Of a stretch of DNA of 64,000 nt, positions 1 to 48,708 are shown one piece after another. The DNA comes from Escherichia coli (GTDB lineage Bacteria > Pseudomonadota > Gammaproteobacteria > Enterobacterales > Enterobacteriaceae). The DNA is taken from NCBI RefSeq assembly GCF_003334765.1, contig NZ_QOWT01000002.1. The stretch is one strand, 5' to 3'. Made by a program: the position numbers and the translations under genes. The notes beneath the pieces were generated by a model. The model saw only the letters and a list, made by a program, of their open reading frames with translations, was not told where the DNA came from and searched no databases. Position 1 is the stretch's first letter. Each line of letters opens with the position of its first letter.

Positions 1-337
1 TCCGGTAGAACTATTAATGAAAGTACAACTGGGCGGCGGAACCAATATCGCCAGTGCCGTGGAGTATGGTCGGCAACTTATTGAACAACCAGCAAAAAGC
101 GTCATTATCCTCGTGAGCGATTTTTATGAAGGGGGTTCATCATCATTGCTGACGCATCAGGTGAAAAAGTGTGTCCAGAGCGGCATCAAAGTGCTGGGAC
201 TGGCAGCGCTCGATAGCACAGCAACGCCTTGCTATGACCGCGATACGGCCCAGGCGCTGGTTAATGTCGGCGCACAAATAGCCGCCATGACGCCGGGCGA
301 GCTGGCATCATGGCTTGCAGAGAACCTTCAGTCATGA
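1..337 (+). CDS. yehP: VWA-domain protein YehP, C-terminal fragment (gene starts upstream of window)
   Basis: ORF open to the window edge, stop at 335-337; recognised C-terminal sequence. Confidence 0.8.
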   Translation, partial: PVELLMKVQLGGGTNIASAVEYGRQLIEQPAKSVIILVSDFYEGGSSSLLTHQVKKCVQSGIKVLGLAALDSTATPCYDRDTAQALVNVGAQIAAMTPGELASWLAENLQS

Positions 338-2337
338 ATTCACTACGTCCGGAATTATTAGAACTGACACCACAGGCACTGACGGCGTTAAGCAATGCCG
401 GTTTTGTTAAGCGCAGCCTTAAGGAACTGGAAAATGGCAACGTCCCGGAAATCAGCCATGAGAACGGCGCTTTAATCGCCACCTTCAGTGACGGTGTCCG
501 TACCCAGCTGGCGAACGGCCAGGCACTGAAAGAGGCTCAGTGCACCTGTGGGGCCAGCGGCATGTGCCGTCATCGCGTGATGCTGGTGTTAAGTTATCAA
601 CGACTTTGTGCTACCGCCCAGCCTGCGGAAAAAGAAGAAGAGTGGGATCCGGCAATCTGGCTGGAAGAACTGGCTACCCTGCCCGATGCCACCCGCAAAC
701 GCGCGCAGGCGCTGGTCGCTAAAGGCATCACCATTGAGTTGTTCTGTACGCCGGGCGAAATTCCCTCTGCCCGCTTACCGATGAGCGATGTGCGTTTTTA
801 TTCCCGCAGCAGCATTCGTTTCGCCCGTTGTGATTGTATTGAAGGCACTCTTTGCGAACATATCGTACTGGCGGTACAGGCCTTCGTCGAGGCCAAAGCG
901 CAGCAAGCAGAATTTAACCATTTAATCTGGCAGATGCGCAGCGAACACGTCACATCATCTGACGATCCGTTTGCCAGCGAAGAAGGCCAAACGTGTCGTC
1001 AATATGTTCAGCAATTAAGCCAGGCATTATGGCTTGGCGGCATCAGCCAGCCGCTTATTCACTACGAGGCCGCTTTCAGCCGCGCGCAGCAAGCGGCGGA
1101 ACGCTGCAACTGGCGATGGGTGAGTGAATCGCTACGGCAACTGCGCGCCAGCGTTGATGCCTTCCACGCCCGCGCAAGCCATTATCATGCCGGAGAATGC
1201 TTGTGTCAGCTTGCCGCATTAAACAGTCGATTAAATTGCGCACACGAAATGGCGCAGCGCGACAGTGTTGGTGAAATTCCTCCCATGCCGTGGCGCACGG
1301 TCGTTGGCGCAGGCATTGCCGGAGAAGCAAAGCTTGATCATCTGCGGCTGGTGTCTTTAGGTATGCGTTGCTGGCAGGATATTGAGCATTATGGTTTACG
1401 CATCTGGTTTACCGATCCCGACACCGGCAGTATTTTGCACCTTTCGCGCAGTTGGCCGCGAAGTGAACAGGAAAACTCACCGGCAGCTACGCGTCGGCTG
1501 TTTAGTTTTCAGGCTGGCGCACTGGCGGGCGGGCAAATTGTTTCACAAGCAGCAAAACGCAGTGCCGATGGCGAGCTGCTGTTAGCTACCCGCAACCGCT
1601 TAAGCAGCGTTGTGCCGCTGTCGCCTGATGCCTGGCAAATGTTGAGCGCGCCGTTACGCCAGCCGGGCATTGTGGCTTTGCGGGAATATTTACGCCAGCG
1701 TCCCCCCGCCTGCATACGGCCTCTTAATCAGGTCGATAACTTATTTATTCTGCCGGTCGCTGAGTGTATTTCGCTCGGTTGGGATAGCAGCCGCCAGACG
1801 CTGGATGCGCAGGTAATCAGCGGCGAAGGTGAAGATAATCTGCTGACGTTATCACTGCCAGCCTCAGCCAGCGCGCCTTATGCCGTTGAACGCATGGCGG
1901 CGCTTTTGCAACAAACAGACGACCCCGTGTATCTGGTTTCTGGCTTTGTCAGTTTTGTTGATGGGCAATTGACACTGGAACCACAGGTAATGATGACAAA
2001 GACTCGTGCCTGGGCGCTGGACGCAGAAACTGCGCCTGTGGTGGTATCACTACCTTCTACCAGCGTTCTGCCTGTGCCGTCTACTGCTCATCAGTTGCTG
2101 ATGCGCTGCCAGGCGTTACTTATTCAACTGCTCCATAACGGCTGGCGCTATCAGGAACAGAGCGCTATTAGTCAGGCAGAGTTGCTGGCGAATGACCTCA
2201 CCGCGGTGGGTTTTTATCGGCTGGCACATGTGTTGGCACAATTTCGTAATACAGAAAGCGAGGCACGGGTAGAAGCAATGAATAACGGTGTTTTGCTTTG
2301 CGAACAATTATTCCCCATGCTTCAGCAACAAGGATGA
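334..2337 (+). CDS. yehQ: SWIM zinc-finger protein YehQ, function unknown
   Basis: Long ORF; ATG at 334 overlaps yehP stop (ATGA); two CxC-Xn-CxH motifs. Start 310 vs 334 uncertain. Confidence 0.8.
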   Translation: MNSLRPELLELTPQALTALSNAGFVKRSLKELENGNVPEISHENGALIATFSDGVRTQLANGQALKEAQCTCGASGMCRHRVMLVLSYQRLCATAQPAEKEEEWDPAIWLEELATLPDATRKRAQALVAKGITIELFCTPGEIPSARLPMSDVRFYSRSSIRFARCDCIEGTLCEHIVLAVQAFVEAKAQQAEFNHLIWQMRSEHVTSSDDPFASEEGQTCRQYVQQLSQALWLGGISQPLIHYEAAFSRAQQAAERCNWRWVSESLRQLRASVDAFHARASHYHAGECLCQLAALNSRLNCAHEMAQRDSVGEIPPMPWRTVVGAGIAGEAKLDHLRLVSLGMRCWQDIEHYGLRIWFTDPDTGSILHLSRSWPRSEQENSPAATRRLFSFQAGALAGGQIVSQAAKRSADGELLLATRNRLSSVVPLSPDAWQMLSAPLRQPGIVALREYLRQRPPACIRPLNQVDNLFILPVAECISLGWDSSRQTLDAQVISGEGEDNLLTLSLPASASAPYAVERMAALLQQTDDPVYLVSGFVSFVDGQLTLEPQVMMTKTRAWALDAETAPVVVSLPSTSVLPVPSTAHQLLMRCQALLIQLLHNGWRYQEQSAISQAELLANDLTAVGFYRLAHVLAQFRNTESEARVEAMNNGVLLCEQLFPMLQQQG

Positions 2338-2415: not shown

Positions 2416-2438
2416 CTGGTGAGAGTCACCAGTTTCTT
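2416..2438 (+). terminator. Probable intrinsic terminator after yehQ
   Basis: CTGGTGA / TCACCAG stem followed by TTTCTTG. Confidence 0.5.
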
Positions 2439-2461
2439 GATTAAATAAAATGGAGTTTTAC

Positions 2462-2923: not shown

Positions 2924-2929
2924 TCTGTC

Positions 2930-2954
2930 GGCGGCCATGTTTCGCATGGCCGCC
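2930..2954. terminator. Shared hairpin between convergent yehR and yehS
   Basis: 10-bp GC stem GGCGGCCATG / CATGGCCGCC with 5-nt loop; no clear U-tract on either strand. Confidence 0.45.
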
Positions 2955-2963
2955 ATACCCGTC

Positions 2964-3434: not shown

Positions 3435-3480
3435 GAGGCCTTCAGGTGTTGATGAGGCAAAAAGCCATTTTAGCAGTCTT

Positions 3481-4200
3481 TTACAGGCCAATCGCCTCTT
3501 TTAAGCTTTTCAGATAACGGCGGCTGACCGGCACGGTTAAGCCATTACGCAAAATCAACTCGGCCTGGCCGTTATCTTCCAGACGAATCTCCTGTAAATG
3601 CGCGAGGTTAACCAGATACTGACGATGGCAGCGCAGTAGTGGTGTACGACTTTCCAGGGTACGTAATGTCAATTCGGTAAAGCCCTCTTTCCCTTCGTGG
3701 CTGGTAACGTAGACACCGCTCATCCGACTGCTGACAAATGCCACATCTTTCATTTGCAGCAAATAAATCCGACTATGCCCAGTACAAGGGATAAATTTCA
3801 GCGCCTGTTGATTTTCTGGTAACAGCGAAACATCCTGCTTGCTGCGTTCCTGCCGCAAACGCGCCAGCGTTTTCTCCAGTCGCGCTTCATCAATTGGCTT
3901 CAGCAGATAATCAAAGGCGTGTTCTTCAAAGGCTTTAATGGCGTATTCGTCAAACGCGGTGAGAAAAACAATATACGGACGATGTTCCGGGTCGAGCATC
4001 CCCACCATTTCCAGACCACTGATGCGCGGCATCTGGATATCGAGAAACAGCACATCCGGGCGCAGTTTATGCACCGCGCCGATCCCTTCCACGGCGTTTG
4101 AACACTCACCAACGATTTCAATATCGCTCTGCTCCTGCAAAAATACGCGCAGGTTCTCCCGTGCTAACGGTTCATCATCGACAATTAAGACTTTAATCAT
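3481..4200 (-). CDS. btsR: LytTR-family response regulator BtsR (YehT)
   Basis: Receiver domain ([10 protein letters not shown]) plus LytTR C-terminus; start overlaps btsS stop. Confidence 0.9.
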
Positions 4201-5882
4201 GCCTCGTCCCTCCATGGTAGTCGTAACGTTATTCGGGTGTAACTATCAGGCTCACAGGCGACGCTTATCCCATAGTCATCGCCAAACCGTTCACGTAAAC
4301 GCTTATCCACCAGATTCATCCCCAGCCCACTGGCATTGGTTACCGGTTGATACAAACCGGCATTGTCTTCGATCTCCAGCATTAAATGTTGCCCCTCACG
4401 TCGGGCGCTGATTGCCACTCGCCCTGTATCCAGCAGTTGTGATGTCCCATGTTTAATGGCGTTTTCCACTATCGGTTGCAGGGTAAACGCGGGCAATTGC
4501 TGCTGGGATAATTCTTGCGGAATAGCAATGTTGACCTGCAACCGCGACTGGAAGCGCGCCTTTTCAATTTGCAGATAAGCATTCACATGTTCAATTTCGT
4601 CGGCGAGAGTAACAAACTCCGAAGGCCGCTTTAAGTTTTTGCGGAAAAAAGTGGAAAGATACTGCACCAGCTGGCTGGCCTGTTCGCTGTCGCGACGGAT
4701 CACCGCTTTAATGGTGTTAAGCGCATTAAACAAAAAATGGGGATTCACCTGGGCGTGAAGCAGTTTGATCTCTGACTGGGTGAGCATCGCTTTTTGCCGC
4801 TCATATTGCCCGGCAAGGATCTGCGCCGAAAGCAGTTGCGCAATCCCCTCGCCCAGCGTGCGGTTGATTGAACTGAATAAACGGTTTTTGGCTTCATACA
4901 ATTTGATGGTGCCCATCACCCGCTGATTTTCACCACGCAACGGAATTACCAGCGTCGACCCCAGTTTGCATTGCGGATGCAAAGAGCAACGGTAAGGTAC
5001 TTCGTTGCCATCAGCGTAGACCACTTCACCGGTTTCAATCGCTTTTAAGGTATAAGTCGAAGAAATCGGTTTGCCGGGTAAATGGTGGTCGTCACCAATT
5101 CCGGTAAAGGCTAGCAATTTCTCTCGATCGGTAATCGCGACTGCACCAATATCCAGCTCCTGATACAGCACCTGTGCCACTTTCATGCTGTTCACTTCGT
5201 TAAACCCCTGGCGCAAAATGCCTTCCGTCGAGGCCGCCACTTTCAGCGCAGTGGCAGAAAAAGCTGAAGTGTATTTTTCAAACATCGCGCGTTTATCGAG
5301 CAATATACGCATAAACAGCGCCGCGCCGACGGTATTGGTGACCATCATTGGCGCAGCAATATTACTCACCAGACGTACCGCATCTTCATAAGGTCGGGCG
5401 ATCGCCAGGATGATCAACATTTGCACCATTTCAGCGACGAACGTGACGGCACCGGCGGTAATGGGGTTAAAGACTTTATCAGTGCGCCCGCGACGGATCA
5501 GGATGCTGTGTACCAGGCCGCCGAGCAATCCTTCAACGATGGTTGAGATCATGCAACTTAGCGCGGTCATGCCCCCCATCGAATATCGATGTAAGCCGCC
5601 GGTCAGACCAACCAGCCCACCGACGACCGGACCGCCGAGTAAGCCGCCCATTACCGCGCCTATCGCACGGGTATTGGCAATAGAATCGTCAATGTGCAAC
5701 CCAAACCAGGTGCCCATGATGCAGAAGATGGAAAAGACGATGTAGCAGAGAAATTTATGCGGCAGACGAACCGTGACCTGCATTAACGGTATGAATAATG
5801 GCGTTTTACTCATTAACCACGCAATGACTAAAAAAACGCACATCTGCTGAAGCAGCAGCAACACCAGATTAAAATCGTACAT
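4197..5882 (-). CDS. btsS: LytS-type sensor histidine kinase BtsS (YehU)
   Basis: N-terminal multi-TM domain, GAF and His-kinase regions; start at MYDFNLV. Confidence 0.9.
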
Positions 5883-6103
5883 ACCCGCAAACCACACTTC
5901 CCTTTAAAACGCGTAACATACATTGCCTGCGTTTAACTTTCTTTGAACTCTTGCAGAAAAATGAGAATTCGTGAGTACGATCACTCAAAATCGCCTGGCA
6001 AAAATAAAATCACCCTATAGATGCACAAAAAACGGGCAAAACTACCTGGTTCGCAAAACTGCGTCTAAAGTTAAACCGGGACCTCGCGAGCAAGGGTGAG
6101 ACG

Positions 6104-6835
6104 ATGGCGCTTTACACAATTGGTGAAGTGGCGTTGCTTTGTGATATTAATCCTGTCACGTTACGCGCGTGGCAGAGGCGTTACGGATTGCTGAAACCGC
6201 AACGGACAGACGGCGGTCATCGGCTGTTCAACGATGCCGATATTGACCGGATCCGCGAGATCAAACGCTGGATCGACAACGGCGTGCAGGTCAGCAAAGT
6301 TAAAATGCTGCTCAGTAATGAAAATGTTGATGTGCAGAACGGCTGGCGCGATCAGCAAGAAACATTACTGACTTACCTGCAAAGCGGCAATCTACATAGC
6401 CTGCGAACGTGGATCAAAGAGCGCGGTCAGGATTACCCCGCCCAGACACTCACCACACATCTGTTTATTCCTCTGCGCCGACGGCTTCAGTGCCAACAAC
6501 CGACTCTCCAGGCGCTGCTGGCGATCCTCGACGGCGTACTGATCAACTACATCGCCATTTGTCTGGCTTCGGCACGTAAAAAACAGGGTAAAGATGCGCT
6601 GGTGGTTGGCTGGAATATTCAGGATACCACCCGTCTGTGGCTGGAGGGCTGGATTGCCAGTCAACAAGGATGGCGCATTGATGTCCTCGCCCACTCGCTC
6701 AATCAACTACGCCCTGAACTATTCGAAGGCCGTACATTGCTGGTGTGGTGCGGTGAAAATCGAACCTCCGCCCAACAGCAGCAACTCACCAGTTGGCAAG
6801 AACAAGGCCATGATATTTTCCCACTCGGCATTTAA
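6104..6835 (+). CDS. mlrA: MerR-family transcriptional regulator MlrA
   Basis: 243 aa ORF with N-terminal MerR HTH; recognised sequence. Confidence 0.9.
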   Translation: MALYTIGEVALLCDINPVTLRAWQRRYGLLKPQRTDGGHRLFNDADIDRIREIKRWIDNGVQVSKVKMLLSNENVDVQNGWRDQQETLLTYLQSGNLHSLRTWIKERGQDYPAQTLTTHLFIPLRRRLQCQQPTLQALLAILDGVLINYIAICLASARKKQGKDALVVGWNIQDTTRLWLEGWIASQQGWRIDVLAHSLNQLRPELFEGRTLLVWCGENRTSAQQQQLTSWQEQGHDIFPLGI

Positions 6836-6894
6836 TGATTCGTTAACAAATGCGCTTTACTGTACAATCCTTTCGTTAACATAAGGAGTGCATT

Positions 6895-7002
6895 ATGCGC
6901 ATAGCTAAAATTGGGGTCATCGCCCTGTTCCTGTTTATGGCGTTAGGCGGAATTGGTGGCGTCATGCTCGCAGGTTATACCTTTATTTTGCGTGCTGGCT
7001 AA
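6895..7002 (+). CDS. yohO: Small membrane protein YohO (35 aa)
   Basis: Not in ORF track; read by eye. AAGGAG 7 nt upstream of ATG; single hydrophobic helix; 3-prime end overlaps yehW antisense. Confidence 0.7.
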
Positions 7003-7714
7003 GCGCCTGCACCAGCCTTTCAAACAGGCGGTCTGCGATGATCGCCGCCAGTGCCACCAGTAACGCCCCCTGGATCACATACGCGGTATTAAATCCGCTA
7101 AGCCCGATGATGATGGGCGTACCCAGCGTGCTGGCCCCTACCGTTGAGGCGATCGTCGCCGTACCAATGTTGATAATCACCGAAGTTCGCACGCCCGCCA
7201 GAATCACCGGAGCCGCCAGCGGTAGCTCGACCTTACGCAGTCGCTGACCACGACTCATTCCCATACCTTTCGCAACTTCTGTCACGCTGGCATCAATCGC
7301 TCCCAGCCCGGCAAGTGTCGCCTGCAGGACGGGCAGCACACCGTAAAGGATCAAGGCGATAATCGCTGGTTGCAGACCAAAGCCGATCACCGGAACGGCG
7401 ATCGCCAGCACTGCGACGGGCGGAAAAGTCTGTCCAACGGCGGCAATAGTTTCCACCAGTGGGCGAAATTCCGCGCCCCACGGGCGAGTGACAGCAATTC
7501 CGGCACCAGTGCCAATGATCACCGCAAACAAACTCGAAATTCCCACCAGCCAGAAATGAGCCAGTGCCAGAGCTGCAAAACTTTCTTGCTGATAAACGGG
7601 TCGTGGCAGTTGTGGGAACAAGGCAGCAAACAGCGGCTGGCTGTAAGGCAGCCAGAAAATCAGCGCCACAAACAGAGCAATGAGCCAGAACAGCGGATCG
7701 CGCAACATCTTCAT
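6983..7714 (-). CDS. yehW: Osmoprotectant ABC transporter permease YehW
   Basis: 243 aa polytopic permease ORF in yehZYXW order. Confidence 0.9.
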
Positions 7715-7718
7715 ACGC

Positions 7719-8645
7719 TTACGCCTCCTCCAGCAGATCCTGAAAATGCAGCGTGCCGCAAGGCTGGCCCTGCGTGTTCATCACCGGCAGCACCTCGCAT
7801 CCCCGCGCGACAAACAGGGAGAGCGCATCGCGCAGCGTCATCTCTTCTGCCAGTGCCTCACCTTCTGCCCGTTCTTCGCGACGCACGTAATCCGCCACAC
7901 TACGTAACGAAAGCAGGCGCACCCCCAGTTCACTACGTCCAAAAAACTGGCGGACAAAATCATTCGCCGGACGAGTCAGCATCGTCAGCGGATTCCCCTG
8001 CTGCACCACTTCACCGTGATCCATCAATACCAGATGTTCTGCCAGCCTTAGCGCCTCATCAATATCATGAGTGACCAGCACAATAGTGCGCCCCAGCAAA
8101 CGGTGAATGCGCGTCATCTCTTGTTGCAACGCGCCGCGCGTTACCGGGTCCAGTGCGCCAAAAGGTTCATCCATCAGTAAGACTTGCGGATCGGCAGCCA
8201 GTGCGCGCGCCACTCCCACACGTTGCTGCTGACCACCGGAAAGCTGATGCGGATAACGCTCACGCAAATTTGACTCCAGCCCCAGTAGCGCCATTAATTC
8301 GTCGATACGATCGTCAATCCGTGCCCGCGACCATTTTTGTAATTGCGGCACGGTAGCGATGTTTTGCGCCACGCTCCAGTGGGGGAACAGGCCAATAGAT
8401 TGAATGGCATAGCCCATCCGGCGGCGCAACTCCAGTACTGGCAGCGAGCGAATTTCTTCTCCGGCAAAGCGGATCACGCCGCTGTCATGTTCCACCAGGC
8501 GGTTAATCATTTTCAGGGTGGTGGATTTGCCGGAGCCAGATGTGCCAATCAGCACCGAAAAACTCCCTTCCTGAAAATTGAGATTGAGATCGTTAACGGC
8601 TTTTTGTGCGCCGAACAGTTTGCTGACATGGCTAAATTCAATCAT
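7719..8645 (-). CDS. yehX: Osmoprotectant ABC transporter ATP-binding protein YehX
   Basis: Walker [13 protein letters not shown] signature LSGGQQQR. Confidence 0.9.
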
Positions 8646-9795
8646 TACGTTTCACCTTCAGCAGTGCGATAAGCAAATCGAACAGCGCGTCGGTAAGCAC
8701 CGCCAGAACAATTACCGGGATCACCCCCAGCAACACTAAATCAATGGCGCTGCTTAGCAGCCCCTGGAAAACCAGCGCACCAAAACCGCCTGCGCCGATT
8801 AACGCCGCAATCACCGCCATACCTACAGTTTGCACCATCACCACCCGCAGGCTGCGCAGAAATACCGGTAACGCCAGTGGTAACTGAACATGCAGGAATC
8901 GCTGCGCCCCGCTCATCCCCATCGCTCTGGCGCTCTCCAGCACATCGCGCGGGATCTGGTTCAAACCGACTACCACGCCGCGCACCAGCGGCAGCAAGGC
9001 ATAGAGCACCAGCGCAATCAGTGCGGGTGTCATTCCGGTTCCTGCTATGCCGAGCTTCCCCAGCCACGGAAAGGCCGTAACCAGCGCGGCAAGCGGCGCA
9101 ATCAACAGGCCAAAGAGCGCCACCGAAGGCACGGTCTGAATGACATTGAGCAGAGAAAAAATTGCCCCCTGCCGCGCAGTGGAAAAGTAGCACCAGATGC
9201 CCAACGGCACACCAATCACTAACGCAGGCAGCACCGCACCAAACAGCAACGTCAAATGCTGTGCCAGCGCGTCGTCAAACACATCCTGACGGTTGGCGTA
9301 TTCTTTCATTAGTGAGAGATCGTTAAGCGTGCCGGAGTACAGCAACCACAGCGGAATAATGGCAATCTGCATATGCAACAACCAGCGCCACAGCGGATGC
9401 GTGGAGATTCGGCGGATGGCATCGCTACAGGCCAGCAATGCCAGCGCCGCAGCCAGCCAGAAACCACTGCCGAGGCTGGTACGCGCCAGCGCACTGCCAT
9501 TTTGCGCCAGTTGGGTCGCCGCCTTTCCTGCTCCCCACACCAGCAATACGAAGACGAATTGCGCCAGAATGAGTGCAAAAATGCTGCCTTTTTTAGCGGG
9601 AATAAAACAGGCTGTCAGCCAGGCGCAACCAACGCCCACCAGCATCCAGATCGTTTGCGGCCACAGTTGCCAGAGATGACGCCCTTCACCCGAGACTAAA
9701 CGATTAGGCGCGTAACTGATAAACGGCAGCGCCGCTGCGATTGCCGTCAGCAACAGCAGCAGCGCCAGAACAGGATTAATACGTAGATAAGTCAC
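8638..9795 (-). CDS. yehY: Osmoprotectant ABC transporter permease YehY
   Basis: 385 aa polytopic permease; 8-nt overlap with yehX. Confidence 0.9.
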
Positions 9796-9801
9796 GGGAA
9801 A

Positions 9802-10719
9802 TTACTTCGTCCACCCTTTTTGTTTCAGGTAGTCGGCAGCCACTTTTTTGGCATCCAGTCCTTCCACTGCAATGCTGGCATTCAGTTGCTGCAATGTTTT
9901 TGCATCGAGGCTGGCGAAGACTGGCTGTAGCCACTGTGCCATTTGCGGATACTCTTTCAGCACCGACTCACGCACCACTGGTGCAGGCGCGTAGATAGGT
10001 TGCACGCCTTGCGGATCGCTTAAGGTTTGCAGCCCCAGCGCCGCGACCGGACCGTCAGTGCCGTAAGCCATTGCGGCATTAACGCCAGAAGTTTGCTGGG
10101 CAGCGGCTTTAATCGTTACCGCCGTGTCGCCGCCAGCCAGTGACAGTAACTGATCCTGATCGAGTTTAAAGTCGTAGGCTTTTTCAAACGCGGGTAACGC
10201 ATCGGCGCGTTCGATAAACTCTGCCGAGGCTGCCAGTTTGAAGGTGCCGCCCTCTTTCAGATAACGACTCAGGTCAGCAAGCGAAGTGAGTTTGTTTTTC
10301 TCTGCCACATCCTGACGCACGGCGATGGTCCAGGTGTTATTCGCTGGTGCGGGCGTCAGCCAGATTAACTTGTTTTGCTCTGCATCGAGTTTTTTGACTT
10401 TCTCGTAACCTTGCTGCGCGTTTTTCCATGCCGCATCGTTTTCATCTTTAAAGAAGAAAGCGCCATTGCCGGTATATTCCGGATAGATATCCAGTTCACC
10501 GGAAGTAATCGCCCCGCGCACCACAGGAGTCGTTCCAAGTTGCACTTTATTGACCGTTGGTACGCCGTGGCTTTCGAGTACTTGCAAAATGATATTGCCG
10601 AGCAGCGCGCCTTCGGTATCGATTTTTGAACCGACTTTAACGGGGGAAGCCGCGTGCAGCGGCAGGCTCACGGCTGCCAACAAAACCAGTGAACCTGCCC
10701 AGACCTTTGAGAGTGGCAT
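9802..10719 (-). CDS. osmF: Periplasmic glycine betaine-binding protein OsmF (YehZ)
   Basis: Signal peptide plus substrate-binding protein fold; first gene of yehZYXW. Confidence 0.9.
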   Translation of the reverse strand: MPLSKVWAGSLVLLAAVSLPLHAASPVKVGSKIDTEGALLGNIILQVLESHGVPTVNKVQLGTTPVVRGAITSGELDIYPEYTGNGAFFFKDENDAAWKNAQQGYEKVKKLDAEQNKLIWLTPAPANNTWTIAVRQDVAEKNKLTSLADLSRYLKEGGTFKLAASAEFIERADALPAFEKAYDFKLDQDQLLSLAGGDTAVTIKAAAQQTSGVNAAMAYGTDGPVAALGLQTLSDPQGVQPIYAPAPVVRESVLKEYPQMAQWLQPVFASLDAKTLQQLNASIAVEGLDAKKVAADYLKQKGWTK

Positions 10720-10862
10720 GATGCTTTCCTCATTCTTTTACTGTTGTTTTCAGCGAATTAAGAGAAAAGCATAGTTGATAATGACAGAGTTAGCCTGAGC
10801 GGAAGGATTCAGTTGCAGAATCAGATAAATACTTAAAGGGCATATTTTGCCCGGCGTTTCTT

Positions 10863-10899
<37 letters not shown>

Positions 10900-10970
10900 G
10901 GGCGAAAATTCAGCAAGTTAAGATATGAACATCAGGCAAAGGGCGCAAACGTCGCGCCCTTACTAAAGCA

Positions 10971-13268
10971 TTACAGCAACTCAAACTCGCCTTTCTTAAC
11001 GCGTGCGGAATCAGTGCCGATAAAGACATTGAACTTGCCAGGCTCGGCGTCATATTTCATCTGTTGATTCCAGAACTTCAGCGCCTCGATATCAATCGGG
11101 AAGCTAACGGTCTGAGTTTCGCCCGGTTTCAGGGTGATTTTCTCAAAGCCTTTCAGCTGTTTCACCGGACGACTCATGGAAGCCGTCACATCCTGCAAGT
11201 ACATCTGCACTACCGTGGCCCCTTCGCGTTTACCGGTGTTCGTCACCTGCACGCTGGCCGTCACTTTGCCGTCACGCTTCATGGTCGGCGCAGAAAGTTT
11301 CACATCAGAGACGGTGAAAGTGGTATAGCTCAGACCATAGCCGAACGGATAAAGCGCCCCGTTAGCTTCATCAAAATAACGCGAAGTGTATTTGTTCGGC
11401 TTGTCGGCATTATACGGACGACCGGTGTTCAGATGGCTGTAGTACACCGGGATCTGCCCGACAGAACGCGGGAAGGACATCGGCAGCTTGCCGGACGGGT
11501 TGTAATCGCCAAACAACACATCGGCAATTGCATTACCGCCTTCAGTCCCCGCAAACCAGGTTTCCAGAATCGCATCAGCCTGCTGATCTTCTTTCACCAG
11601 CGCCAGCGGACGCCCGTTCATCAGCACCAGCACCAGCGGTTTACCGGTGGCTTTCAGCGCCGCAATCAAGTCACGTTGGCTTTGCGGAATAGTAATATCG
11701 GTACGGCTGGAGGCCTCGTGCGCCATCCCCTGTGCTTCACCGACTACAGCCACCACCACATCAGATTGTTTCGCCGTCTGCACCGCTTCATCAATCATCT
11801 CTTGCGGCGAACGCGGATCGACTTTGACCGCTTCTTCATACTGATTCAGGAAATCGATAATGCCTTTGTCACTGGTAACGTTCGCCCCTTTGGCATACAG
11901 CACTTTACCGTTTTCACCGACGGCATTTTTAATCCCGGTCAGCACGGTCACGGATTGATCTGCAACACCTGCCGCCGACCAGCTTCCCATCACGTCACGC
12001 TTGCTGTCTGCCAGCGGGCCAACCACCGCAATGGTTGCGGATTTTTTCAGCGGTAACGTTTCGAGACGGTTTTTCAGCAACACCAGGCTTTCACGCGCCA
12101 CTTCACGCGCTTCTTTGCGGTGCAGGCGGCTTTCGGCATTGGTATCCACCGGGTCAGACTCTTTCGGACCGAGATGGCTGTATGGGTCGTTAAACAACCC
12201 CATATCATATTTAACGTTCAGTACATGGCGGGCAGCATCGTCCAGCTCTGCCATCGTCACTTTACCGGATTTAATCAACCCAGGCAGATACTTCGAGTAG
12301 TACTCGTCGCTCATACTCATGTTGATTCCGGATTTCAGCGCCACGCGCACCGCATCTTCCGGGTCTGCCGCCGTGCCATGTTTAATCAGCTCTTTGATTG
12401 CACCGTGATCGGAAACGGTGATGCCTTTAAAGCCCCACTGGTCGCGCAGAACATCTTTCAGCAGCCAGGAATCGGAGGTGGCTGGCGTGCCGTTCAGCGA
12501 GTTCAGCGCCACCATCACCGCGCCGCTGCCTGCGTCCAGCCCCGCTTTGTACGGCGGCATATAATCATTAAACAGGCGCTGCGGACTCATATCGACGGTG
12601 TTGTACTCTTTACCGCCTTCTACCGCACCGTATGCGGCAAAGTGTTTGACGCTGGTCATCACCGAGTAGCGATCTGCCGGGCTTTTACCCTGCATCGCTT
12701 CCACCATGGTTTTACCCATTATTGAGGTGAGATACGTATCTTCGCCAAAACCTTCGGAAGCACGTCCCCAGCGCGGATCGCGCGAGACATCGACCATCGG
12801 TGCCCAGGTCATATTCAGGCCATCATCTGCCGCTTCATAAGCAGAGACACGTCCGACCGTTTTCACTGCATCGAGGTTAAAAGACGAGGCCAGACCGAGG
12901 CTAATCGGGAACACCGTGCGCTGACCGTGCAGCACGTCGTAAGCAAAGAAAAGAGGAATTTTCAGGCGGCTTAATTCCATCACCTGATCCTGCATGGCGC
13001 GGATATCCTGACGGGTTACGGTGTTGAAAATCGCCCCAACCTGACCGTCTTTGATCATCTCGCGGATCGCCTCTTTCGGGTTATCCGGGCCGACGCTGAT
13101 TAAGCGCAGCTGACCAATTTTCTCATCAACTGTCATTTTCTTAAGCAGTTCGGTGACGAACGCATCCCGCGCTTCGGGCGTTAATGGATGGTTGCCGAAT
13201 AAATCATCCGCCAGTGCTGGCTGCAGGGCCAGACTCACCGCGATTCCTACTGAACATAGCCATTTCAT
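10971..13268 (-). CDS. bglX: Periplasmic beta-glucosidase BglX (GH3)
   Basis: GH3 family sequence; start at MKWLCSVG signal peptide, not the longest ORF. Confidence 0.9.
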   Translation of the reverse strand: MKWLCSVGIAVSLALQPALADDLFGNHPLTPEARDAFVTELLKKMTVDEKIGQLRLISVGPDNPKEAIREMIKDGQVGAIFNTVTRQDIRAMQDQVMELSRLKIPLFFAYDVLHGQRTVFPISLGLASSFNLDAVKTVGRVSAYEAADDGLNMTWAPMVDVSRDPRWGRASEGFGEDTYLTSIMGKTMVEAMQGKSPADRYSVMTSVKHFAAYGAVEGGKEYNTVDMSPQRLFNDYMPPYKAGLDAGSGAVMVALNSLNGTPATSDSWLLKDVLRDQWGFKGITVSDHGAIKELIKHGTAADPEDAVRVALKSGINMSMSDEYYSKYLPGLIKSGKVTMAELDDAARHVLNVKYDMGLFNDPYSHLGPKESDPVDTNAESRLHRKEAREVARESLVLLKNRLETLPLKKSATIAVVGPLADSKRDVMGSWSAAGVADQSVTVLTGIKNAVGENGKVLYAKGANVTSDKGIIDFLNQYEEAVKVDPRSPQEMIDEAVQTAKQSDVVVAVVGEAQGMAHEASSRTDITIPQSQRDLIAALKATGKPLVLVLMNGRPLALVKEDQQADAILETWFAGTEGGNAIADVLFGDYNPSGKLPMSFPRSVGQIPVYYSHLNTGRPYNADKPNKYTSRYFDEANGALYPFGYGLSYTTFTVSDVKLSAPTMKRDGKVTASVQVTNTGKREGATVVQMYLQDVTASMSRPVKQLKGFEKITLKPGETQTVSFPIDIEALKFWNQQMKYDAEPGKFNVFIGTDSARVKKGEFELL

Positions 13269-16149: not shown

Positions 16150-16322
16150 GATGAGCATTCAGATAGTGGTTCACGCGCACGGGTTGCGCACCGCCGGAGT
16201 AAGGATTTACTGAGGCTAGCGACGCCATCATAACGAGCAAAAAGTGCGATCGTCAAAGGAGAATCGTGAGGAAATGCTGCATTGCTGACATTTACGCCAG
16301 CAATGCAACGTCAAAGAACTTT

Positions 16323-17079: not shown

Positions 17080-17658
17080 ATGGATCTCAATACACTTATC
17101 TCACAATATGGTTATGCCGCGCTGGTGATCGGTAGCCTGGCGGAAGGTGAAACCGTGACTTTGCTGGGAGGCGTTGCGGCGCATCAGGGGCTATTAAAGT
17201 TCCCGCTGGTGGTACTTTCTGTGGCGCTTGGCGGCATGATTGGCGACCAGGTGCTCTATCTGTGCGGGCGGCGGTTTGGCGGCAAGCTGTTACGCCGTTT
17301 CTCGAAACATCAGGATAAAATTGAGCGGGCGCAGAAACTTATCCAACGCCATCCGTATCTGTTTGTCATTGGTACGCGCTTTATGTATGGCTTTCGGGTG
17401 ATTGGCCCGACGCTGATTGGTGCCAGCCAGCTGCCGCCGAAAATCTTTCTGCCGCTGAATATTCTCGGCGCATTTGCCTGGGCGTTGATTTTTACCACTA
17501 TTGGTTACGCTGGTGGTCAGGTGATTGCGCCGTGGTTGCACAATCTCGACCAGCATTTGAAGCACTGGGTCTGGTTGATTCTGGTCGTGGTTCTGGTGGT
17601 GGGCGTGCGCTGGTGGCTGAAACGACGCGGGAAGAAAAAGCCGGATCATCAGGCGTAA
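17080..17658 (+). CDS. yohD: DedA-family inner membrane protein YohD
   Basis: DedA-like ORF; start at MDLNTLISQYGY. Confidence 0.85.
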   Translation: MDLNTLISQYGYAALVIGSLAEGETVTLLGGVAAHQGLLKFPLVVLSVALGGMIGDQVLYLCGRRFGGKLLRRFSKHQDKIERAQKLIQRHPYLFVIGTRFMYGFRVIGPTLIGASQLPPKIFLPLNILGAFAWALIFTTIGYAGGQVIAPWLHNLDQHLKHWVWLILVVVLVVGVRWWLKRRGKKKPDHQA

Positions 17659-17664
17659 AACCAT

Positions 17665-17702
17665 TGCCCTGGATAAGGCGTTCGCGCCGCATCCGACATC
17701 CG
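17665..17702. repeat. REP-like element
   Basis: GGATAAGGCGTTCGCGCCGCATCCG after yohD. Confidence 0.7.
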
Positions 17703-17787
17703 GAGTACCATGCCTGATACGACGCTTGTGCGTCTTTTCATGCCGACCAAAATATTACCCAATGAAATATCCACGCACCTCACTGCG

Positions 17788-18549
17788 CTATTCTGGGTTG
17801 AACTGTGGATTCGCCAACATAAAGCCGCCATCCACTATCAACGACTGCCCGGTGGTGTAATTTGCGCCCTCCGAACAAAGCCACACCACCAGGCTGGCAA
17901 TCTCATGCGTTGCGCCAAAACGCCGCAAGGGAATCGAAGGCTCCGCGTCGGGCTTCACGTCGCTGTCATCCATGCCATTCATTGGCGTGGCGATCGCCCC
18001 AGGCGCGACTGCGTTCACCAAAATCTTATGCCTGACCAGCTCCAGCGCCATCGCTTTGGTTAACCCACCGAGCGCATGTTTAGCGGCTGTGTAGGCGCTG
18101 GCATCCGGCAGCGGCGTATGTTCATGTACCGACGTAATGTTGATGATGCGACCGCCCTGCCCTTGTTTCACCATCTGACGAGCCGCAATTTGCGAGCATA
18201 AGAATGCACCATCGACATCAACGGTAAAAATCTTGCGCCACTCATCAAAAGCCATATCAAGAAACGGCGCTTTGGTCATTGCACCCGCATTATTCACCAG
18301 CACATCAATGCGCCCCAGCCGTTGAATGAGTTTCTCCAGCGCCAGTGCCCCTTCTGGTAGATTGCCGAGATCCAGCTGCACGATCTCCGCACGTACGCCG
18401 TGGCTAACTACCTCACGCGCGGTATCTTTTGCCCCTTCTTCATCTGAGTGCCAGGTAATACCAATATCAAACCCCTGCTGCGCCAGTAATAACGCGCACT
18501 CTTTGCCGATCCCCGAATCGGAGGCGGTAATAATCGCAACCTGTGCCAT
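17788..18549 (-). CDS. yohF: Short-chain dehydrogenase/reductase YohF
   Basis: TASDSGIGK NAD(P)-binding motif; start at MAQVAII. Confidence 0.85.
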   Translation of the reverse strand: MAQVAIITASDSGIGKECALLLAQQGFDIGITWHSDEEGAKDTAREVVSHGVRAEIVQLDLGNLPEGALALEKLIQRLGRIDVLVNNAGAMTKAPFLDMAFDEWRKIFTVDVDGAFLCSQIAARQMVKQGQGGRIINITSVHEHTPLPDASAYTAAKHALGGLTKAMALELVRHKILVNAVAPGAIATPMNGMDDSDVKPDAEPSIPLRRFGATHEIASLVVWLCSEGANYTTGQSLIVDGGFMLANPQFNPE

Positions 18550-18601
18550 CGAGTTCTCCACTTAACGCTGAATAAACGTTAAGTATAGAAGGCGCATATC
18601 A

Positions 18602-20038
18602 TCAGCGTTTGTAACCCCCGCCCAACGCACCAGTGAGTTGAATGGAGGCATCCAGCCACTGCCCTTGCAATAACAGGCCATTGGCCCGCTCACGCAGCGC
18701 GGGGATTCTGGCTTCGCTGACGCGGGAACCAGCAATGATGCCCGCGTTAAAGCGCGCCTGCGCAAGACCTACCACACGCAAGGCATCGCGCTCAATTTGC
18801 GCCTGATGCTGGTTTTTCTCCGCCAGTGTCTGAACCTGACTGGCTGCCCGCGCCACGTCATTCACCGCTTCAACCACCGCTTTGTTGTAGCTGGCGATAG
18901 ACAAGTTGCTTTCGGCTTTTGCGATATCGAGATTGGCGTTAAGACGACCACTATCGAAAATGGGTAGCGTCAGGCCTGCCGTAACGCCCATTTGCTGCGC
19001 GGAATGACGGAACAGATCGCTTAAGTGCAACGCATCCTGTTGCAGGAAGGCCATCAGGTTGATGTCAGGATAAAATGCCGCTTTTGCCGCATCAATGGTG
19101 CTTAGCGATGACTCAACGTACCAGTGCGCCGCCTGCAAATCTGCCCGCCGGGCCAGTAAGGAGTACCCCAGTTCATCAGGAAGCTGGCTTGCCACTTTCG
19201 GCAACGCGACCGGTTTAAGCTTCAATGACTTTGTCTGGTTATTTGTAAGTGCGCTTAACCGTGCCTCAATAATTTTCATTTTCCCCGCGACATCGTTGAG
19301 CTGCTGCCGGGTTTTGCTGGCATTAATATCGGTTTCCACACCTTCAACTGAAGAAGTAATCCCGTTCTGATATAGCTGGCGATCGGTCGCGATAATGGTG
19401 TTCTGCTCTTTTTCTATTTGCTGCAAGACCGTGTTTAACGCCGCCTGGGTTTGCCACTCCCAGTACAGGCGGGCTACGCTGCCAGCCAGCAATTGGCGGG
19501 TTTGCTCGCGTTCCGCCGCCCGTGCTTTAACCGTACCCAGGCGGGCAGTAACCTCCGCCCGATTCTTTCCCCAGATATCGAGATGCCAGCCCGCCGTTAA
19601 GCCAAAAGTACCGTTGGTGTACCACGGGCCGGTCGTACCTGCGGCCGGATCGTTCAGAGCAAACGGCCCCATTAAGCCTTCTGCCGACATTTTTTGCCGC
19701 TCCATATCCGCCGAAAAGTCGATCTGCGGACCATCCTGAGTGGCAACTGCCTTCGCCTGGGCTTCAGCTAGCTGAATGCGCTGTTCAGCCACCTGCATAT
19801 CCGGTGCGTTCTGTAGTGCATTGTTAATTAAGGAAGTGAGTTGATTATCGTGATACTCCAGCCACCATTGGCTGTCTGGCCAACCATTTTTCAGCGCCGT
19901 GGGTAATGCGGTGTCAACTTGTGCAGCGGGCGTTTGCTGGCTTAACGCCTGGCGGGTTTCATGCATAGGCGCACACCCGGCCAGCATCAGTAACAGCGGA
20001 AAACAGGCGATGGCTGGATAAAAGGAATCACGATTCAT
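18602..20038 (-). CDS. mdtQ: Outer membrane efflux lipoprotein MdtQ (OMF family), apparently intact here
   Basis: Continuous ORF with signal peptide and lipobox LLMLAGC; start at MNRDSFYP. Confidence 0.8.
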   Translation of the reverse strand: MNRDSFYPAIACFPLLLMLAGCAPMHETRQALSQQTPAAQVDTALPTALKNGWPDSQWWLEYHDNQLTSLINNALQNAPDMQVAEQRIQLAEAQAKAVATQDGPQIDFSADMERQKMSAEGLMGPFALNDPAAGTTGPWYTNGTFGLTAGWHLDIWGKNRAEVTARLGTVKARAAEREQTRQLLAGSVARLYWEWQTQAALNTVLQQIEKEQNTIIATDRQLYQNGITSSVEGVETDINASKTRQQLNDVAGKMKIIEARLSALTNNQTKSLKLKPVALPKVASQLPDELGYSLLARRADLQAAHWYVESSLSTIDAAKAAFYPDINLMAFLQQDALHLSDLFRHSAQQMGVTAGLTLPIFDSGRLNANLDIAKAESNLSIASYNKAVVEAVNDVARAASQVQTLAEKNQHQAQIERDALRVVGLAQARFNAGIIAGSRVSEARIPALRERANGLLLQGQWLDASIQLTGALGGGYKR

Positions 20039-20261
20039 GGGGGAATAATCAGGTAAGAAAAGGTGCGCGGAGATTACCGTGTGTTGCGATATATTTTTTA
20101 GTTTCGCGTGGCAATACATCAGTGGCAATAAAACGACATATCCAGAAAAATATACACTAAGTGAATGATATCTTCCGATTTATCTTAATCGTTTATGGAT
20201 AACGGCAAAGGGCTTCGTTTTTTCCTATACTTATTCAGCACTCACAAATAAAGGAACGCCA

Positions 20262-20345
20262 ATGAAAATTATACTCTGGGCTGTATTGATTATTTTCCTG
20301 ATTGGGCTACTGGTGGTGACTGGCGTATTTAAGATGATATTTTAA
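20262..20345 (+). CDS. yohP: Small membrane protein YohP (27 aa)
   Basis: Not in ORF track; read by eye. AAGGA upstream of ATG; single hydrophobic helix. Confidence 0.65.
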   Translation: MKIILWAVLIIFLIGLLVVTGVFKMIF

Positions 20346-20439
20346 AATTAATTAATGTCATCAGGTCCGAAAATAACGAGAATATTTCAGTCTCTCATCC
20401 TGTTGCGCTCCTGTCATGTGCATTGCTTCATATAATCAC

Positions 20440-20640
20440 TGGCGCAAGGAGCGCGCAGGGGGCGGCCAATCGCCGCCGCCCCCTGCACCCCCGGGCTCTG
20501 GCGAACAAAATCGCCGCTGCGCGGTGCCCTCGACTTATCCCTTACGGCTACCGGGTCGGGCGCGAGGTAACATCCCTGTAAAACGCGCCCTCAGCCCACA
20601 TCCATGTGGGCTGCCCCGGCCTTCAGGGAACGCCTCGGCA
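20440..20640. repeat. GC-rich structured intergenic element with strong hairpins; not a canonical REP
   Basis: 12-bp GC stem near 20455-20486 and palindrome near 20593-20614, in AT-rich flanks between yohP and dusC. Confidence 0.45.
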
Positions 20641-20717
20641 ATTTTGACGCCACCAAACAACCGTGCGGCCTATTGATAAAGAGCTAACACATTGTCAAAA
20701 AACATCACTATGGTTTT

Positions 20718-21665
20718 TTAGAGTTTCTCGATATCAATTGCCTGAATAGCCCTTGCAATATCAGGGGAATTATTCAACACCCGAACATGCTGAAATAATT
20801 CCGTTGCTTCATCGTATTCTTTACGCAAATAACTCAACCACTGTTTAATCCGCGCAACGTGATATAACCCGGTATCGCCCTGCTTTTCCAGACGGGTATA
20901 TTTTTGCAGCAAAGCAACCACCTCCGGCCACGGCATTCGCGGTTCGTTATATTTTACCACCCGGCTCAGGTTGGGAATATTGAGCGCCCCGCGACCAATC
21001 ATCACTGCGTCGCAGCCGCTGATCGCCATGCATTGTTGCGCGCTCTGCCAGTCCCAGATTTCACCGTTGGCAATCACCGGAATATTCAGCCGCTGGCGAA
21101 TATCGCCAATCGCCTGCCAGTCAATATGCTCCGCGCGGTAACCCTGCTCTTTCGTCCGCCCATGCACCACCAGCTCCGTAGCGCCAGCCTGTTGAACCGC
21201 ATCGGCGATTTCAAATTTCTTCTCACCGCTGTCCCAGCCCAGACGCACTTTCACGCTGACGGGCAAATGCGCCGGTACAGCTTCACGCATCGCTTTTGCA
21301 CCCTGGTAGATGAGTTCAGGATCTTTGAGTAACGTCGCCCCGCCGCCGCTACCGTTAACCGTTTTCGACGGGCAGCCGCAATTGAGATCCACGCCCCAGG
21401 AACCTAACTCCACCGCACGGGCGGCGTTCTCTGCCAGCCATTGTGGGAACTGACCTAACAACTGCACGCGCACCAGCGTACCAGATGGTGTCCGGCTGGC
21501 GTTTTGTAGCTCAGGGCAAATGCGATGAAAGACTTTTACCGGCAGCAGTTGATCCACCACGCGGACAAACTCGGTGATGCACAGATCGTAGTCGTTAACT
21601 TCGGTCAGCAATTCACGCACCAGAGAGTCAAGCACTCCCTCCATCGGTGCCAGTAACACACGCAT
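20718..21665 (-). CDS. dusC: tRNA-dihydrouridine synthase C
   Basis: Dus-family TIM-barrel sequence; start at [11 protein letters not shown]. Confidence 0.9.
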
Positions 21666-27789: not shown

Positions 27790-27975
27790 CGCATCCGGCA
27801 TTTGGTTCCTGTCGCCGGATGCGGCTTGAACGCCTTATCCGGCCTACAAAACCATACAAATCAGTATGTTGAGCTTATTGTAGGCCGGATAAAACGCGCC
27901 AGCGTTGCATCCGGCATTTGGCTCCTGTTGCCGGATGCGGCGTGAACGCCTTATCCGGCCTACAAAACCACACAG
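27790..27975. repeat. BIME: cluster of REP copies
   Basis: Two near-identical direct REP units (GCCGGATGCGGC..CGCCTTATCCGGCCTAC) and an inverted partial copy between preA and mglC. Confidence 0.85.
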
Positions 27976-44174: not shown

Positions 44175-45425
44175 TCAAGCTAAACCAATAAAGAACCCGG
44201 CAATGGTCGCACTCATCAAGTTGGAAAGCGTCGCCGCCGCCAGCGCCCGTAAACCAAGCTGGGCGATTTCCGGCGCACGGTGTGGCGCAACCGCAGAAAA
44301 CGCCCCCACCACCACCCCGATAGAACCAAAGTTAGCGAAACCGCACAACGCGAAGGAAATAATCGCCACAGTTTTAGCATCGAGAGTGCCAGCCGTTTGC
44401 AGATAGGGTGAGAAATTGAGATAAGCGACAAATTCATTTATTGCCAGTTTCTGTCCAATCAAACTCCCGGCAAGATTCGCATCACTCCAGTCCACACCCA
44501 TCACCCACGCCAGTGGAGCCAGCAGGTAACCTAAAATGGACTCCAGCGAGGCATGTTCAAAACCAAACCAGCCACCAACGCCGCCGATAATACCGTTAAT
44601 CAACGCAATTATTGCAACAAATGCCATCACCACTGTTGCCACACCTGCGGCGATTTTCAGCCCGGTCATTGCCCCTGTCGCAGCGGCTTCAATAATGCTT
44701 TTTGGCGGTGTTTCGGTGAAAGAGAGGTTATTAAAGGAAACCTGCGAAGATTCCGTTGCCGGGCTTAACAGGCGGGCAAACAAGATCCCGCCAGGGATCG
44801 CCATTAATGATGCCGCCAGCAGATATTCCACAGGCACGCCCAGTGCGGCGTAACCAATCATTGTCGAACCAGCAATCGAGGCCATGCCACTACAAATCGC
44901 TGTAAATAATTCATTGCGATTCAGACGATCGATAAAGGGTTTGACGATTGCCGGAATTTCGTTTTGCCCGAGGAAAATGGTGGTGACCGCGACGAATGAC
45001 TCGATCTTGCTGATATTTAATGCTTTCTGGAAGATACCGCCGAGAATTCGAATTAAAATCCCCATCACACCGATGTAGTAGAGAATACTCACCAGCGCGG
45101 TGACGAAGATAATTGCCGGTAACACCCTGAAACCAAAGATAAATCCTGCACCATCAAATAAGGTATCCATTTTCGGTCCGACCAGAGAACCGAAGATAAA
45201 TGCGCTACCCGCGTCGCTGTACGCCATCACTTTATGCACGCCAAAAGCGACTTTTTCAGCGACCCAACGCCCTGGCGGTAACCAAAGCATAATGCCGCCA
45301 ATCACGACCTGTAACACTAACGCCGCGCCAACGGTACGCAGGCTGATCTTCTTCTTGTTTACTGACAGTAAAAACGCAATCGTCAGCAATACCACCATTC
45401 CCAGAACACTTCTCATGACATCCAT
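44175..45425 (-). CDS. nupX: NupC-family nucleoside permease NupX
   Basis: 416 aa polytopic transporter; close paralogue of psuT in this window. Confidence 0.85.
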   Translation of the reverse strand: MDVMRSVLGMVVLLTIAFLLSVNKKKISLRTVGAALVLQVVIGGIMLWLPPGRWVAEKVAFGVHKVMAYSDAGSAFIFGSLVGPKMDTLFDGAGFIFGFRVLPAIIFVTALVSILYYIGVMGILIRILGGIFQKALNISKIESFVAVTTIFLGQNEIPAIVKPFIDRLNRNELFTAICSGMASIAGSTMIGYAALGVPVEYLLAASLMAIPGGILFARLLSPATESSQVSFNNLSFTETPPKSIIEAAATGAMTGLKIAAGVATVVMAFVAIIALINGIIGGVGGWFGFEHASLESILGYLLAPLAWVMGVDWSDANLAGSLIGQKLAINEFVAYLNFSPYLQTAGTLDAKTVAIISFALCGFANFGSIGVVVGAFSAVAPHRAPEIAQLGLRALAAATLSNLMSATIAGFFIGLA

Positions 45426-45524
45426 AGTGATTATCTCTTCATGTCATATTGGGCGACGGCTTTCTGCCCATCAGAAATAGCCAGGCCTGCATCTTGCGAT
45501 ACCGGCCCGGCTTGTTATCAACAC

Positions 45525-47364: not shown

Positions 47365-48615
47365 TTACGCCAGACCAATAAAGAACCCGGCAATAGTCGC
47401 ACTCATCAGGTTGGAAAGCGTTGCTGCTGCCAGCGCCCGTAAACCAAGCTGGGCGATTTCCGGCGCGCGTTTTGGCGAAATAGCCGAAAATGCGCCAACG
47501 ACAACACCGATAGAACCAAAGTTAGCAAAACCACAAAGCGCAAAGGAGATAATCGCAATGGTTTTCACTTCCAGCGTGCCGCCCGTTTGCAGGTATGGGG
47601 AGAAACTCAGGTAAGCGACGAATTCGTTAATCGCCAGTTTCTGCCCAATCAGGCTACCCGCAAGATTGGCATCACTCCAGTCCACACCCATGATCCACGC
47701 CAGCGGTGCCAGCACATAGCCAAAAATACTTTCCAGAGAGGCATTGGCGAAACCAAACCAGCCGCCAATTCCGCCGATAATGCCGTTGATCAGCGCAATA
47801 ATTGCGACAAACGCCATTACCACCGTCGCCACACCAGCGGCGATTTTTAGCCCGGTCATCGCACCGCTCGCCGCCGCTTCGATAAAGCTTTTTGGCGGCG
47901 TTTCGCTGAACGACAGATTTTCAAATGTGACCTGCGAAGGCTCGGTTGCCGGGCTAAGAATACGTGCAAACAAAATCCCGCCAGGGATCGCCATCAGCGA
48001 TGCCGCTAACAGGTAGTCAATTGGTACGCCCATTCCGGCATAACCAATCATCATCGAACCAGCAATGGACGCCATCCCGCTACAAATTGCGGTAAACAAC
48101 TCGTTGCGATTCATGCGATCGATAAACGGTTTAACGATCGCCGGGATCTCATTTTGCCCGAGGAAAATAGTAGTAACCGCAACAAAAGATTCGATTTTGC
48201 TGATGTTGAGGGCTTTCTGGAAAATGCTGCCAAGGATGCGAATCAGCAGCCCCATCACGCCAATGTAGTACAGCAGACTGATGAGCGCAGTAACGAAAAT
48301 AATCGCCGGAAGTACGCGAAAGGCGAAGATAAAACCCGCACCGTCAAACAGGACATCCATTTTCGGCCCAACCAGCGAACCAAAAATGAAGGCGCTACCG
48401 GCATCACTGTAAGACATCACTTTATGAACGCCTAATGCCGCCTGTTCTACTGCCCATTTTCCCGGTGGGAAGTAGAGCATGATGCCACCAATAGCGATTT
48501 GCAGCAGCAGTGCGGCTCCAACCGTGCGCAAACTGATGCTCTTTTTATTCACTGACAACAGAAATGCTATTGCCAGTAACACCACCATCCCCACAACACT
48601 TCTCATTATATCCAT
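47365..48615 (-). CDS. psuT: NupC-family pseudouridine/nucleoside transporter PsuT (YeiM)
   Basis: 416 aa; close paralogue of nupX (by-eye estimate near 85-90 percent aa identity). Confidence 0.85.
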   Translation of the reverse strand: MDIMRSVVGMVVLLAIAFLLSVNKKSISLRTVGAALLLQIAIGGIMLYFPPGKWAVEQAALGVHKVMSYSDAGSAFIFGSLVGPKMDVLFDGAGFIFAFRVLPAIIFVTALISLLYYIGVMGLLIRILGSIFQKALNISKIESFVAVTTIFLGQNEIPAIVKPFIDRMNRNELFTAICSGMASIAGSMMIGYAGMGVPIDYLLAASLMAIPGGILFARILSPATEPSQVTFENLSFSETPPKSFIEAAASGAMTGLKIAAGVATVVMAFVAIIALINGIIGGIGGWFGFANASLESIFGYVLAPLAWIMGVDWSDANLAGSLIGQKLAINEFVAYLSFSPYLQTGGTLEVKTIAIISFALCGFANFGSIGVVVGAFSAISPKRAPEIAQLGLRALAAATLSNLMSATIAGFFIGLA

Positions 48616-48708
48616 AATGATTTTCCCTTCATGCCGGTAAATCCGGCGTCAGCGCCAGGTTTTGGTATGCTTGATGAGTACGGGCGACGGCTTTCTGCCC
48701 GTCAGAAA

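Follow-up and report, generated by a model that had tools for sequence, protein, structure and literature searches.

Escherichia coli has four outer membrane factors (OMFs) of the TolC type. One of them is the product of mdtQ (formerly yohG), which belongs to the NodT/OprM-like lipoprotein subfamily. Its best homolog of solved structure is VceC of Vibrio cholerae (PDB 1yc9), which matches residues ~51-477 of MdtQ with E = 1e-39. OprM of Pseudomonas aeruginosa (PDB 1wp1) follows with E = 1e-23 over residues ~51-477, and after it come CmeC, SilC, CusC, OprN and MtrE. VceC, which works with VceAB, and OprM, which works with MexAB, are like MdtQ lipoprotein OMFs with two OEP repeats, although both are distant from it in sequence. 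Within E. coli the closest paralog family is that of MdtP (YjcP), the outer membrane subunit of mdtNOP, which has the same NodT-type lipoprotein architecture (NF007390, E = 2.7e-106). TolC, in contrast, shares only ~12% sequence identity with MdtQ, which scores 54 bits with the TolC model against a cut-off of 225; TolC is not a lipoprotein. The genetic context also differs. The mdtP gene lies in an operon with its adaptor and its pump, and cusC likewise has adjoining pump and adaptor genes, whereas mdtQ stands alone (PMC11762307).

A 2025 review of TolC places mdtQ in the E. coli core genome even though the gene is annotated as a pseudogene (PMC11762307), and the gene that adjoins yohP in K-12 has been named "the mdtQ pseudogene" (PMC12719787). 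An intact mdtQ outside K-12 is thus already published and is ordinary. Here we analyzed the mdtQ locus in a stretch of 64,000 nt of E. coli DNA, called the window in what follows. Our data indicate that it very probably carries the wild-type, functional allele of mdtQ and that the loss of a single base on the K-12 branch was recent; by analogy with its family, MdtQ would act as an outer-membrane exit duct. To the published record, the present work adds the exact lesion, allele counts over 5,426 genomes and the finding that the mdtQ adenine is the only indel over ~51-53 kb relative to MG1655; the overall picture is unchanged.

Reading frame and family assignment of MdtQ

Inspection of the ORF table and of the raw sequence identified mdtQ as an uninterrupted frame of 1437 nt on the minus strand, which begins with the ATG at 20038 and ends with the TGA at 18602-18604 (Table 1). 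These are exactly the limits between which the first-pass annotation had described the gene as intact. A longer mechanical ORF of 508 aa, starting from TTG at 20128, was rejected because the family model, all RefSeq annotations and the signal peptide start at the ATG at 20038. The N-terminus, MNRDSFYPAIACFPLLLMLAGC followed by APMHE, opens with a charged n-region, which is followed by a hydrophobic core and by the lipobox L-A-G-C, in which Cys22 lies; the residue at position +2 is Ala. The lipobox consensus predicts a substrate of signal peptidase II. According to the Lol sorting rule, Ala at +2 is not an inner-membrane retention signal, and by this rule MdtQ is predicted to be located in the outer membrane.

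The family assignment is supported by several models. The MdtQ equivalog NF008524 (NCBIfam) is matched from end to end, residues 1-478 on model positions 1-478, with 1024.4 bits against a cut-off of 650. MdtQ from the window also exceeds the cut-off of TIGR01845 (outer_NodT, the NodT/OprM-type lipoprotein OMF subfamily), with 274 bits against 210.05, and both features of this type, two tandem OEP repeats and an N-terminal lipobox cysteine (LLMLAGC, Cys22), are present in the sequence. The complete lipoprotein signal and the OMF-length body that had been noted from the letters alone are therefore real. Identity as MdtP was considered and rejected, since the protein scores 356 bits with NF007390, below the cut-off of 597.

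At the DNA level, mdtQ of the window has 100% identity with genes annotated as mdtQ in many E. coli chromosomes. One of these is strain 720632, whose product is annotated as WP_001078139.1, and the window copy shows no difference from the common wild-type allele. The gene order yohF-mdtQ-yohP-dusC matches that of MG1655 and of other strains, which places the gene at the orthologous position. The end-to-end match with NF008524, the two OEP repeats and the complete identity to annotated genes show that this is not a chance ORF. Two ORFs on the plus strand lie antisense within mdtQ (19095-19370 and 19395-19739); they have no supporting evidence.

Table 1. Coordinates of mdtQ, its sequence features and its immediate flanks in the 64,000-nt window
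Feature	Position	Strand	Description
mdtQ (yohG) CDS	18602..20038	-	478 codons + TGA, intact; ORF, sequence, NCBIfam, identity to annotated mdtQ
Lipoprotein signal peptide and lipobox (codons 1-22)	19973..20038	-	Cys22 is the predicted acylated first mature residue; translation MNRDSFYPAIACFPLLLMLAGC
A5 homopolymer (T5 on + strand), frameshift site	19887..19891	-	ORF nt 148-152, Lys50-Asn51; A4 in K-12; alignment with b2139, allele probes
First OEP repeat (aa 69-266)	19241..19834	-	Pfam PF02321, E = 2.2e-17
Second OEP repeat (aa 293-473)	18620..19162	-	Pfam PF02321, E = 9.8e-13
Sole in-gene substitution relative to MG1655	18614..18614	-	ORF nt 1425, GGT in window, GGG in K-12, synonymous (Gly475)
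Divergent mdtQ/yohP intergenic region	20039..20261	.	223 nt; presumably holds mdtQ promoter; 0-4 substitutions across six lineages
mdtQ-yohF spacer	18550..18601	-	52 nt; perfect 8-bp inverted repeat at 18560-18584; GGAG Shine-Dalgarno for yohF
yohF, SDR-family oxidoreductase	17788..18549	-	Directly downstream of mdtQ; 100% identical to K-12

The K-12 frameshift and its distribution in E. coli

In MG1655 (NC_000913.3), mdtQ is the annotated pseudogene b2139 (2227323-2228758, 1436 nt), and RefSeq tags the gene as "frameshifted" in AML001_ev02, a K-12-like assembly that agrees with MG1655 in gene order and protein accessions. The first-pass annotation had described the K-12 gene as a disrupted pseudogene, and pairwise alignment agrees with it: the K-12 copy is frameshifted and not an uninterrupted ORF, and the position of the frameshift could be located. 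There are exactly two differences between the MG1655 gene and the ORF of the window, the deletion of one A and one synonymous SNP. The A was lost from the run CTG-AAA-AAT-GGT. After the deletion the K-12 frame reads LKMVGQ... and ends at codon 70 with a stop. The remainder of MdtQ is open in the +2 frame and has neither a start codon of its own nor a signal peptide. K-12 therefore lacks the MdtQ channel, because translation stops at codon 70 and any product restarted downstream would have no signal peptide. With its A5 run and open frame, the window allele is not the K-12-type pseudogene allele.

The distribution of the two alleles was determined in 5,426 complete E. coli genomes. DNA of mdtQ was detected in 5,421 of them, and in 5,391 it covered at least 80% of the gene length. 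The A4 and A5 alleles were distinguished by allele-specific probes whose flanks of 22 nt force the 28-nt megablast seed to span the run. The A5 probe gave matches in 5,018 genomes, while the A4 probe of K-12 matched 355, always at 100% identity. A5 was present in all phylogroups sampled, including alleles that are 2.6% diverged. Since A5 is the species-wide state, the intact mdtQ is ancestral. It is also the normal condition of the gene in E. coli, and its presence therefore marks the window merely as "not K-12".

The origin of the A4 genomes was judged on 60 of the 355 records, picked at even steps through the ranking. Apart from EcN_Sk, each was either a laboratory strain or derivative of K-12 or fitted a K-12 origin. 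Among them are MG1655, BW25113, DH1, DH5alpha, EPI300, MC4100, C600/EC600, J53, JM109 and TG1, together with HMS174, NCM3722, RP437, S17-1 and mouse-gut evolution lines of O16:H48. On the basis of these 60 genomes, the A4 deletion is restricted to the laboratory lineage of K-12. Its presence in all the sublines sampled shows that the frameshift is older than their divergence.

The exceptional record, EcN_Sk (NZ_CP172017.1, 1762333-1765380), has a mdtQ-yohF segment that is 100% identical to K-12, frameshift included, although its name suggests a derivative of Nissle 1917. The mdtQ of genuine Nissle 1917 is intact and 97.7% identical to that of the window. As its segment is K-12-identical and unlike that of genuine Nissle 1917, EcN_Sk either has DNA from K-12 or was assembled as a chimera; introgression of K-12 DNA, engineering or chimeric assembly may account for it. 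In Nissle 1917 itself (NZ_CM189243.1), the intact mdtQ is followed directly downstream by a yohF that carries an internal stop and is annotated as a pseudogene.

Two further strains have changes of their own at this locus. In E. coli 720632 (NZ_CP025842.1, locus 1748-2445), an IS1A transposase gene is found 55 nt upstream of a mdtQ that is 100% identical to the one in the window. No yohP is annotated at the mdtQ locus of this strain, and the spacing between dusC and mdtQ implies an accompanying deletion. The IS1A insertion could either disrupt or drive the expression of mdtQ. In the human faecal isolate E. coli PSS-11 (NZ_AP027694.1), a single nucleotide has been lost independently at nt 575 of mdtQ, where CTGTACTGG has become CTGT-CTGG. 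This deletion lies outside a homopolymer and leads to a stop at codon 201, and the gene is otherwise identical to that of the window; either a natural loss or an error of assembly could explain the deletion. Independent truncations of mdtQ are also described for some isolates of Salmonella Typhi and Paratyphi A (PMC9241588). These truncations and that of PSS-11 indicate that mdtQ is dispensable in some niches.

Origin of the window and alternative readings of the intact frame

The window corresponds to positions 2,208,767-2,272,720 of MG1655, in the same orientation. From 12,722 to 64,000 (~51 kb) it is 99.98% identical to MG1655 and differs from it by only 12 SNPs and one indel, which is the A of mdtQ; the nucleotide identity of most genes in this part is 100%. 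The left ~12.7 kb (1-12721, yehP to bglX), in contrast, are 2-5% diverged, the first ~10.9 kb being 97.7% identical, and at 12721, within bglX, the cluster of SNPs ends. Relative to MG1655 the window is thus a mosaic, with what looks like a recombination boundary at bglX. A stretch of 24 kb around mdtQ is 100% identical to ML35, NCTC9100, LR-64-2 and other non-K-12 isolates. From these sequence comparisons, we infer that the source of the window is a close non-K-12 relative of K-12. Such an origin implies a very recent date for the deletion on the K-12 branch. The first-pass annotation had left open whether the window came from a lineage other than MG1655 or carried the ancestral intact allele. 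Both hold, the former by the 12 SNPs and the diverged left arm and the latter by the occurrence of A5 throughout the species. For annotators, this means that the window should be treated as non-K-12 E. coli DNA and that mdtQ should be called as a normal gene and not as a pseudogene.

A similar case lies in the left arm. The yehQ gene (334..2337, plus strand) has 667 codons in the window, where GAG at 2179-2181 stands in place of the TAG amber codon of MG1655, and K-12 YehQ has 614 aa. There is also an in-frame insertion of 3 nt near nt 1705 relative to MG1655. Thus, yehQ looks like a second gene in which the K-12 reference has a damaged allele.

Two other histories of the A5 run have to be weighed against an inherited intact allele. 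The window could really be K-12, with an extra A introduced into the homopolymer by a sequencing or assembly error. A single-base difference in a homopolymer is typical of errors in long-read sequencing, and the near identity of the surrounding 51 kb to MG1655 would agree with such an origin. However, this reading has to leave aside the 12 further SNPs in the same 51 kb, the divergence of the left arm, the non-K-12 GAG codon in yehQ and the 24 kb that are identical to several independent isolates outside K-12. The same A5 run is moreover found in 5,018 independent genomes, and an artefact is effectively refuted. Slippage in a homopolymer is reversible in principle, and the window could for this reason also be a secondary revertant, that is, an A4 allele of the K-12 type that regained an A. 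Against this, every phylogroup sampled has A5, alleles as far as 2.6% diverged included, and at nt 1425 the window does not have the synonymous G that is specific to K-12. The parsimonious history is a single deletion on the branch of K-12. Reversion is accordingly left with a negligible probability, and an ancestral frame that was broken once in K-12 is the history that we retain.

A different alternative accepts the frame as intact and disputes its use. The gene may be cryptic or silent, without a role as an efflux duct, and be kept only through transcriptional coupling to yohF or the regulation of yohP. This would fit the absence of a Shine-Dalgarno sequence and of a mapped promoter (PMC11762307), the absence of an adjoining pump, and the loss of mdtQ in K-12, in PSS-11 and in some Salmonella Typhi at no evident cost. 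The evolution of the coding sequence argues otherwise. Pairs drawn from six intact alleles, which represent different lineages and are 1.1-2.6% apart, were compared by the Nei-Gojobori method. The pairwise dN/dS ranged from 0.04 to 0.19 (pooled ~0.11), and none of the six alleles has lost the frame, the lipobox or either OEP repeat. A ratio of ~0.11 across six lineages reveals purifying selection on the MdtQ protein. Together with a frame that is intact in 92% or more of the 5,426 genomes and the preservation of the signal peptide, the lipobox and both repeats, it speaks for selection on the protein itself, and a merely cryptic gene is quite improbable, though less so than an artefact or a revertant. 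We therefore favor a functional allele whose product probably works as an outer-membrane exit duct.

Proposed function, regulation and flanking genes

By analogy with its family, the precursor of MdtQ would be exported by Sec. Cys22 would then receive a diacylglyceryl group, after which signal peptidase II would cleave the precursor, and the Lol system would be expected to sort the protein, with its Ala at +2, to the outer membrane. There MdtQ may assemble as a trimer with a 12-stranded beta-barrel and a long alpha-helical periplasmic tunnel. Such a trimer could be the exit duct of a tripartite pump whose inner-membrane pump and periplasmic adaptor are encoded elsewhere. No pump or adaptor gene is adjacent to mdtQ in the window or in the MG1655 gene neighborhood, hence a partner encoded elsewhere.

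A null mutant of mdtQ is quoted in the TolC review as more susceptible to puromycin, acriflavine and tetraphenylarsonium (PMC11762307). If the strain was K-12, these drug phenotypes are hard to reconcile with a pseudogene, which counts against the explanation by a functional allele. In that case they did not come from full-length MdtQ, and polarity on yohF might explain them. As the K-12 reference is atypical at mdtQ, knock-out collections made in K-12 cannot reveal the role of MdtQ, a lesson already in the literature.

YohP is a stress-induced small protein whose gene is transcribed divergently from mdtQ. In wild E. coli, one or several tripartite pumps could use intact MdtQ as a second exit duct that is independent of TolC and perhaps co-induced with YohP. 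We consider this rather doubtful. If true, efflux biology based on K-12 underestimates the repertoire of outer-membrane channels of natural and clinical strains.

No match to a Shine-Dalgarno sequence precedes the ATG of mdtQ (CCTGATTATTCCCCCATG). A scan of 17600-20800 for the sigma-70 consensus detected none in the 223 nt upstream of mdtQ, and fewer promoter-like sites overall than in shuffled sequence. The expression of mdtQ may be low or conditional, and its promoter is described as unconfirmed (PMC11762307). The low number of substitutions in the mdtQ/yohP intergenic region across the six lineages (Table 1), against a dS of 0.04-0.09 in the CDS, nevertheless suggests regulatory constraint.

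On the other side of the gene, the spacer to yohF harbors an inverted repeat with perfect arms, ACTTAACG and CGTTAAGT, separated by 9 nt and without a T tract. The repeat is conserved in four of the six lineages, and the other two have single changes in the loop or the stem. Its arms may form a hairpin in RNA, or the palindrome may be bound by a protein. No terminator-like site was found between mdtQ and yohF in the scan of 17600-20800, and the two genes are probably co-transcribed.

Rfam and tRNA scans of the whole window found nothing at or beside mdtQ. Elsewhere in the window, two Rfam matches on the minus strand scored above the gathering score. One is a Peptidase-S11 RNA motif just upstream of pbpG (16154..16234, 72.8 bits), and the other is the REP-derived element naRNA4/CssrE between preA and mglC (27883..27960, 88.3 bits). 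The window also contains the paralogous nucleoside-transporter genes nupX and psuT (44184..45443 and 47374..48633), which lie 3 kb apart on the same strand and share 79% DNA identity.
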